Below, in pieces: positions 37,939-38,483 of a DNA stretch of 64,000 nucleotides. How positions within the stretch are numbered: the first letter of the stretch is position 1; each line of letters starts with the position of its first letter. A model generated the notes under the pieces. The model was not told the DNA's origin, made no database searches, and was given only the letters and a program-made list of their open reading frames with translations. The position numbers and the translations under genes are program-made. The stretch lies in the NCBI GenBank assembly GCA_964016885.1, contig OZ024747.1:22816001-22880000 (forward strand), read 5' to 3'. This DNA is from Eledone cirrhosa (lineage: Eukaryota).

Positions 37939-38483
37939 ATGTGGATGTACATTTTTAACTTAATTGTTTAAGCGTCAGTCATACAAAAGTGAGTTACAAA
38001 CGAAACGAAATTTAATTTCGTTTCGTTATTTGTTTTTATCGTCTCCGTTGAACCGGTACGTACTCACGCTCTATGCAAATTAGTCTGCCCACTACTAATT
38101 TTCATAGAAAAAGCATATAACGATATGTGCTTTTACGATTCTCTAGAAAGGCCGGAAGATAGGTAAATATTGCTGATGAGTTGTAACAACAACGAAACTA
38201 GTTCAATATTCCTTGTCTGGCTTTCTGGAGAATAGAGGAAAGGTGTTTCCTCAAAAACCAGTATGACTCTAAAAACCGGTTTGTCTGTGTGTTTACATAC
38301 AGAATAGCTGGACACTCACAGTAAAGTGACCAGTGAAAAACTCGGTACATCTACATATGCATACTAGTATTTCAGTATACATATGTGGATGTACATTTTT
38401 AACTTAATTGTTTAAGCGTCAGTCATACAAAAGTGAGTTACAAACGAAACGAAATTTAATTTCGTTTCGTTATTTGTTTTTAT
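37939..38483 (+). mobile_element. Retrozyme/Penelope-like element: 444-bp unit with ~100-bp terminal direct repeat
   Basis: GTGGATGTACATTTTTAAC..TTATTTGTTTTTAT at 37941 and 38385; internal hammerhead; (TA)n on both sides. Confidence 0.8.
38166..38210 (+). ncRNA. Type I hammerhead ribozyme, canonical core
   Basis: AATATTG-CTGATGA-GTTGT(AACA)ACAAC-GAAAC-TA-GTT-CAATATT; stem I extends over 38138-38232. Confidence 0.88.

Follow-up and report, generated by a model that had tools for sequence, protein, structure and literature searches.

Metazoan non-LTR retrozymes were defined by Cervera and de la Pena (2020; PMC7229834), who proposed circular RNAs as their templates and regarded Penelope elements as strong candidates for moving them. 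A Penelope origin is supported by co-occurrence and pLTR trees (Li, Clavereau and Pollet, preprint 10.64898/2026.07.22.740005) and is also discussed in a review (PMC7761336), and the parts of both texts drawn on here leave the mechanism unresolved. Penelope insertions themselves are described as partial tandems with an inverted copy and a tail on one end (PMC8557442). A further study (PMC11167929) reports two internal starts of reverse transcription, cleavage and extension of both strands and a predicted dimer, and finds that Anolis Penelope does not depend on cleavage by the ribozyme in vitro and favours unprocessed RNA. Hammerhead cleavage becomes dimer-dependent when stem III is short and palindromic (PMC4209133). 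As far as the cited portions of this work go, it was left open whether circles really serve as templates, by which enzyme retrozymes are moved, and how the inverted arms and tails of Penelope elements arise. The element described here is of a type already known, and its genomic copies bear on the open mechanism with unusual directness.

The copy that we analysed lies in a window of 64,000 nucleotides (the whole stretch of DNA under study) and is one member of a high-copy, non-coding, non-LTR retrozyme family. Like the metazoan elements of the papers cited, the family has one type I hammerhead per tandem unit and a non-coding, structured unit of low GC, ranges from monomers to long arrays at many loci, and co-occurs with Penelope-like elements; its unit is slightly above the 150-450 bp given in PMC7229834 and within the 51-972 bp of the preprint. 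Circles have been demonstrated for metazoan retrozymes in those two works; the evidence on the present family comes from DNA. The cited parts of the metazoan retrozyme papers do not describe fixed dual 3′ ends, a long/short rule for paired arms, chimeras or editing scars, and a search of titles and abstract openings, with subscription literature mostly uncovered, found no report of the last three for retrozymes. The arm rule may already be described in part for autonomous Penelope elements.

The resemblance to Neptune-type Penelope elements, as described in the cited parts of PMC8557442 and PMC11167929, extends to partial tandems, 5′ truncation, an inverted 5′-truncated copy, a one-ended tail, two reverse transcription (RT) start sites, a microsatellite target and a hammerhead with a short palindromic stem III. 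Unlike those elements, the retrozyme has no RT/GIY-YIG ORF and no similarity to the local autonomous families examined, and its tail measures ~70-74 nt as against 30-40 nt in the published cases; in the local autonomous families D and A the corresponding lengths are 39 nt and about 65 nt, respectively. MRC1 and similar non-autonomous Chlamys elements, which are Penelope derivatives with pLTRs and multicopy head-to-tail insertions, are comparable as well, but PMC8557442 describes most of them as having no canonical hammerhead, and their 3′ ends as similar to those of the autonomous partner. Plant LTR retrozymes and viroid-like RNAs share with the family a small, highly base-paired RNA with a hammerhead. 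The plant elements differ in having type III rather than type I ribozymes, LTRs, and a 4-bp rather than a 15-bp target site duplication, and viroid-like ambisense replicons contrast with a family that has its hammerhead core on the plus strand only and a branched rather than rod-like fold.

The window copy and its family

The window copy is a young, single-ribozyme, 5′-truncated insertion of ~1.2 turns, with the following features.

37830-37940, no strand: left (TA)n target tract; the 5′ junction lies in an ATAT microhomology at 37937-37940
37937-38039, plus strand: 5′ partial turn of 103 nt, with the same letters as the 3′-terminal 103 nt
37941-38384, plus strand: one full retrozyme turn, 444 bp, 35.8% GC
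38139-38232, plus strand: extended bulged stem I around the ribozyme, from the fold; helices 1-4 in the covariation set
38166-38210, plus strand: predicted type I hammerhead; core CUGAUGA at 38173-38179 (DNA CTGATGA)
38348-38360, plus strand: site of the private 22-nt deletion, near 38354, between CATATG repeats
38409-38414, plus strand: family 'short' 3′ end site, unit positions 25-30, within the loop of a small hairpin; this copy continues past it
38410-38483, plus strand: Penelope-type 'tail' of ~70-74 nt with a 13-bp hairpin, stopping at the 'long' 3′ end, unit position 99
38481-38736, no strand: right (TA)n target tract, the predicted primer for reverse transcription

Self-comparison of the window identified 37937-38039 and 38381-38483 as an exact direct repeat of 103 nt at an offset of 444, the other offsets from 440 to 448 giving at most 4 nt of exact match. 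The original prediction, of about 1.2 copies between TA tracts with some 100 bp of terminal redundancy, was correct in this respect, and the redundancy follows from a fixed 3′ start combined with a 5′ stop after ~1.2 turns. No inverted second arm is present at the left TA tract. The 444-bp unit that had been proposed is accurate for the repeat offset in the window copy and does not extend to the family, in which the unit is ~465-469 bp; 444 bp is a private length, because the 22-nt deletion occurs only here, and a 33-nt pattern across the deletion junction has a single occurrence in the genome. In addition to this deletion, one substitution and one 1-nt indel separate the window copy from its nearest sampled relative.

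The TA flanks, the hammerhead core, the cut site and stem III all lie where they had been predicted. Cleavage is expected after 38203, following a GUU triplet (38201-38203) that is replaced by GUC in other subfamilies. Stem II is GTTGT/ACAAC (38180-38193), with GAAA at 38194-38197; stem III is the palindrome ACTAGT (ACUAGU) at 38197-38202, which is predicted to be active as a dimer; and stem I, AATATTG/CAATATT, lies within the extended bulged stem. The Rfam model Hammerhead_HH9 matches 38155-38226 with an E value of 7.7e-8 and 37.7 bits, below its gathering score of 52, and a scan of the whole window gave no Rfam match at or above gathering score. A hammerhead core is found on the plus strand and none on the minus strand, other ribozyme classes having been checked through Rfam alone. 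The unit folds at -147.5 kcal/mol, compared with -91.3 +/- 4.7 for shuffled sequences (z -12). It has the non-coding character and the GC content under 50% by which retrozymes are recognised, and no open frame exceeds 60 aa on either strand of the circularised unit, the longest being 60 aa. Li et al. (2026) call active those loci with at least two consecutive units containing complete ribozymes; many family loci elsewhere in the genome are of this kind, whereas the window copy has one ribozyme and would release no monomer on its own.

Pattern searches of the 3.0-Gb genome gave 5,212 exact matches to a 30-nt hammerhead core, with none for the reversed control, and 40,258 matches to a looser core pattern that includes sister families, with 3 in the control. 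Together with the tandem arrays, the number of exact cores bears out the identification of the element as a retrozyme. Units are present singly and in tandem arrays, often head to head, of which the longest reach 27 or more units, and 291 hammerhead motifs were parsed in the sampled arms. Double changes were seen at 7 of the 142 predicted pairs in a set of 30 diverse units (38 cells), as against 0 of 500 shuffles, and 13 of the 30 had a compensatory change in hammerhead stem II; a stricter test of shared versus singleton pairing, on single-sequence structures, gave mixed results (p 0.42, 0.048 and 0.028). Two family units folded as circles had z scores of about -10 relative to shuffles.

Fixed 3′ ends and the pairing of arms

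Over the first 124 Mb of contig C1 we mapped 106 insertions, keeping 177 of 191 arms; the 14 that were dropped were short palindrome or TA matches. An unbiased set of 28 insertions was chosen by ribozyme core and the remainder by the long-end junction, so that short/short pairs could be sampled in those 28 only. In this core-selected set, 43 of 45 3′ ends fall at two fixed sites ~70 nt apart, a long site at unit position 96-101 and a short site at 23-31. Exact junctions of the long end with TATA number 2,062 genome-wide, and short-end junctions number 765 on the forward strand, the reverse count being redundant. TA flanks at 153 of 163 3′ ends point to a microsatellite target. The 5′ ends are evenly spread round the unit (n = 160, p = 0.25) and show no accumulation near the ribozyme cut site (6 against 6.2 expected), which is crossed by 134 of 163 arms. 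Start and end points that are both circularly permuted had been anticipated; it is the 5′ ends alone that scatter. The proposed test by circular permutation is therefore not supported, the 3′ ends being fixed, at two sites, and the 5′ ends variable.

Head-to-head pairs in which both ends are standard consist without exception of one long and one short arm: 57 of 57 overall and 15 of 15 in the core-selected set, with nine further cases after extension and three from a young clade bringing the total to 69 of 69. Two of the 69, L107 and L108, are 17.7 kb apart with identical junctions and likely represent one event followed by segmental duplication. About five or six additional pairs have a non-standard end, the L189 chimera among them, and the pair counts omit L132, L147, L082 and a locus at C1:322 Mb, where arrays extend beyond the fetched DNA or meet an N gap. 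Eight single long arms retain an inverted stub of the short end, 10-20 nt in length. At arm-to-arm junctions the two arms overlap by at least 1 nt in 37 of 57 cases, mostly by a few bases. Target duplications are unreadable inside TA tracts, that of the window copy included; in the one case of an insertion outside a TA tract (L240) a duplication of 15 bp is present, longer than 4 bp as in metazoan non-LTR retrozymes. Fixed 3′ ends that bear a tail, 5′ truncation of varying extent and an inverted second copy constitute a Penelope-like insertion anatomy, and the tail, the inverted second arm and the TA target had escaped the first reading of the locus.

A probable Penelope partner and chimeric insertions

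An RT/GIY-YIG ORF is absent from the unit and from the 64-kb window and present elsewhere in the genome. Among 10,596 GIY-YIG candidates, of which 150 were scored, 20 loci with long frames encode RT with a C-terminal GIY-YIG domain. They fall into about seven groups, copies within one group being ~97% identical, and most have a Cys-rich linker; we read them as Neptune-like, going by the description in the cited part of PMC8557442. Two of the families, D and A, each have two ends of their own, 39 nt and about 65 nt apart, respectively, and hammerhead-like motifs with a palindromic ACCGGT; a family D core pattern has 25 matches. Altered hammerhead-like cores with an ACCGGT stem III were also noted in young autonomous Neptune-like families at L170 (about 6100-6280), L175 and L186, one example having UUGAAAA in place of CUGAUGA.

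No sequence common to the retrozyme unit and an autonomous Penelope was found among 50 GIY-YIG loci. Matches to the family unit inside GIY-YIG loci were considered as partner similarity and rejected, as they are separate insertions. As none of these 50 loci shares unit sequence, assignment of a partner rests on 2 chimeras in 106 insertions, involving two different families. At L189, a retrozyme long arm faces a 5′-truncated arm of Neptune-like family D, 2.4 kb in length, which stops at D's own short end and is preceded by a 39-nt piece of retrozyme; at L190, a retrozyme long arm abuts the 3′ end of a B-like Penelope. Each of these could be a later insertion accompanied by deletion. A third chimera, L192, joins a retrozyme long arm to D's long end and breaks the long/short rule. 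We conclude that the family is likely mobilised in trans by Neptune-like Penelope enzymes.

The template and a proposed mechanism of insertion

Opposite arms of one insertion differ by a median of 0.5% (n = 48), compared with 5.7% between insertions, and in 24 of 47 cases no other arm is as close as the partner. Within arrays, 142 of 168 variable columns are singletons. Divergence is the same in register as out of register (0.66% and 0.64%, 31 insertions), and no in-register memory of a linear donor was seen overall (13 versus 12); at L112, two variants in register are common to both arms.

Changes fixed within an insertion and read on the ribozyme strand include more A>G than T>C (27 versus 12, p = 0.015), an excess that is weaker on unique sites (about 18 versus 10) and on variants present in two arms (11 versus 6, p = 0.23); singletons show no A>G lean (29 versus 37). 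Rare letters in an alignment of 30 units favour A>G by 37 to 13, and 19 of the 37 come from L113 and L114, where A>G accounts for 8 of 9 and 11 of 14 rare changes, respectively. In genome pattern searches, patterns spanning part of each cluster match their own insertion only, that of L113 in three turns and the opposite arm and that of L114 in two turns, and the changes are present in every turn that covers the sites. Turn-private clusters of three or more A>G changes are absent from 364 turns. ADAR carries out A-to-I editing of paired RNA, and these haplotypes can be understood as the editing of one monomer that was then copied repeatedly by both arms, the strong case being that of two insertions, L113 and L114. 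Among array singletons on the sense strand of C1 there are 68 G>A against 37 C>T changes, which RT misincorporation or cDNA deamination may explain.

A recent burst comprises 69 essentially identical units carrying three A>G changes, at seven loci (C1 at 30.83, 85.31 and 322.55 Mb, C6, C18, C410 and C744) with arms of up to 17 turns. This young clade is uninformative on the template, as copying from a 17-unit linear donor could account for it too; a donor absent from the assembly would merely shift the question one step back. In arrays over 7 kb, variants are shared in blocks, and such arrays also grow by block duplication at the DNA level. Variant patterns of period 2 or 3 occur at L040, L044 and L139. 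Arrays at L132, L147 and L082, two of them longer than 13-14 kb and one, with about 31 cores, longer than 7 kb, contain block-duplicated variants and are read as retro-inserted arrays turning into satellites. At L246 (C744:11500-19000), one arm has nine units of one haplotype and continues as another subfamily, probably because RT switched from one retrozyme RNA to a second.

We propose, with a probability of roughly 0.7, that the window copy is a 5′-truncated copy of a hammerhead repeat, likely mobilised in trans by a Neptune-like Penelope element, with a monomer RNA, likely circular, as the template. The simplest form of such a template is a circle, which is favoured because the arms of an insertion share one haplotype, the 5′ ends ignore the cut site, and A>G haplotypes are private to an insertion and yet present in all its turns; the same three kinds of evidence favour the earlier suggestion that the template was read more than once round. 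From the observed DNA anatomy and counts we infer a course of events in which the enzyme, its action as a dimer, and the steps of cleavage, ligation and editing are all conditional. Arrays would be transcribed, paired hammerheads would cut by means of the palindromic stem III, and the 466-nt monomer would be ligated; being structured, the RNA might sometimes undergo A-to-I editing. A Penelope RT/GIY-YIG protein, likely a dimer, would nick both strands of a TA tract. One nick would prime at the long site and the second at the short site, both on a single RNA, which each RT would then circle for under 1 to about 17 turns. The two cDNA ends may then be joined by microhomology, or one cDNA may be joined straight to the target, as in the window copy, and some arrays would expand later at the DNA level. 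Somewhat better than even, in our estimate, are the chances of the more specific proposal that an RT dimer of a Neptune-type Penelope uses both nicks of one TA target as primers and starts at two fixed and non-interchangeable sites on a single ADAR-edited circular RNA, generating palindromic arrays of up to ~25 turns per event.

It is also conceivable, though we consider it unlikely, that the same two-ended Penelope insertion used a long uncut tandem transcript of an array, so that the ribozyme was unneeded. The use of unprocessed RNA by Anolis Penelope in vitro (PMC11167929, in the part cited), the weak stem III and GUU triplet, the existence of donor arrays with 17 identical units and the in-register variants of L112 all speak for such a template, and arms that cross the cut site fit it equally well. 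Editing of a multimer, however, should vary from unit to unit, whereas the A>G clusters are insertion-private and fixed in all turns, with no turn-private cluster and no overall in-register memory; moreover, arrays would be unable to outgrow their donors. Less likely again is a linear, ribozyme-cut monomer on which RT, having reached the 5′ end, jumps back to that molecule's 3′ end. Such jumping would account for fixed edits as well as a circle does, and template switching does occur, as seen in the haplotype change of the C744 arm and the 39-nt retrozyme piece at L189; against it, 5′ ends at the cut site do not exceed expectation, and the cut-site junction is letter-perfect through up to 17 turns, where jumping might be expected to leave stops and scars.

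Two other explanations fare worse. Priming of a circle at any position, with circularly permuted start and end points as the result, would produce the even spread of 5′ ends but not two 3′ sites in an unbiased set or 2,062 identical long-end junctions; this very improbable reading is largely refuted by the fixed 3′ ends. We give hardly any credence to a satellite or MITE-like sequence spread by DNA processes, in which the ribozyme would be fortuitous or dead and the redundancy of the window copy a local duplication. Block duplications in the longest arrays, and inverted arms that resemble terminal inverted repeats, speak for it, but it is at odds with arms that end unequally, 5′ junctions that scatter, an A>G bias on the sense strand, compensatory changes in stem II and chimeras with Penelope ORFs.

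The family gives countable answers to the questions left open in earlier work, through arms paired strictly as long and short, a single template for each insertion, and chimeras that point to Neptune-like partners, and its putative editing scars serve as barcodes of single molecules. If the proposed mechanism is true, these insertions are direct genomic evidence that animal retrozyme circles are templates for transposition, the Penelope tail marks two asymmetric RT starts of one insertion, and past rounds of rolling-circle, two-ended target-primed reverse transcription are preserved in the genome as fossils. For a reconstitution, the family supplies a predicted RNA of 466 nt, its two priming sites, the TA target and candidate RT families. 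With ~40,000 cores of the motif class, such elements make up a large share of the genome's repeats and offer a path from retrotransposition to satellite arrays.

Eight of 24 sequencing runs were examined, in which the contigs were all of an unidentified or DNA-guessed kind. Matches in these runs indicate that organism A carries many variants of the unit. Near-identical pieces, mostly at low depth, are found in X4, X5, X7, X8, X9 and X12, which are labelled as other organisms, and two of the matches are single closed contigs of 495-496 nt. A circle, a tandem array, contamination, relatives or transfer could each explain these matches, which were left out of the argument.

Several other elements lie in the window. 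A sister retrozyme family is represented at 16821-17429 by a head-to-head insertion whose ends are one long and one short, with a tail of about 56 nt and a unit of about 423 bp; its core at 17186, with an ACTAGT stem III, is frequent among the first 100 matches of the looser core pattern. Adjoining the window copy, 38848-39199 and 39200-39742 are inverted or partial-tandem elements with hammerhead-like cores at 39065 and 39594, and the motif type of the latter was also found in several GIY-YIG loci. Two minimal hammerhead-like motifs, at 58746-58885 and 59110-59250, are 364-365 bp apart, with a long stem II and TA after each, and are likely another Penelope-related repeat. Broken LINE-type remains are present at 60088-63901 on the minus strand (pieces of endonuclease/exonuclease/phosphatase, RT and zf-RVT) and at 17899-18780 on the plus strand (a second RT fragment). 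A 3.2-kb (CCA)n-rich tract at 30518-33746 adjoins a 29-bp satellite at 33855-36617 (95 copies, 96% match), and a 20-bp tandem array occupies 40563-41342.
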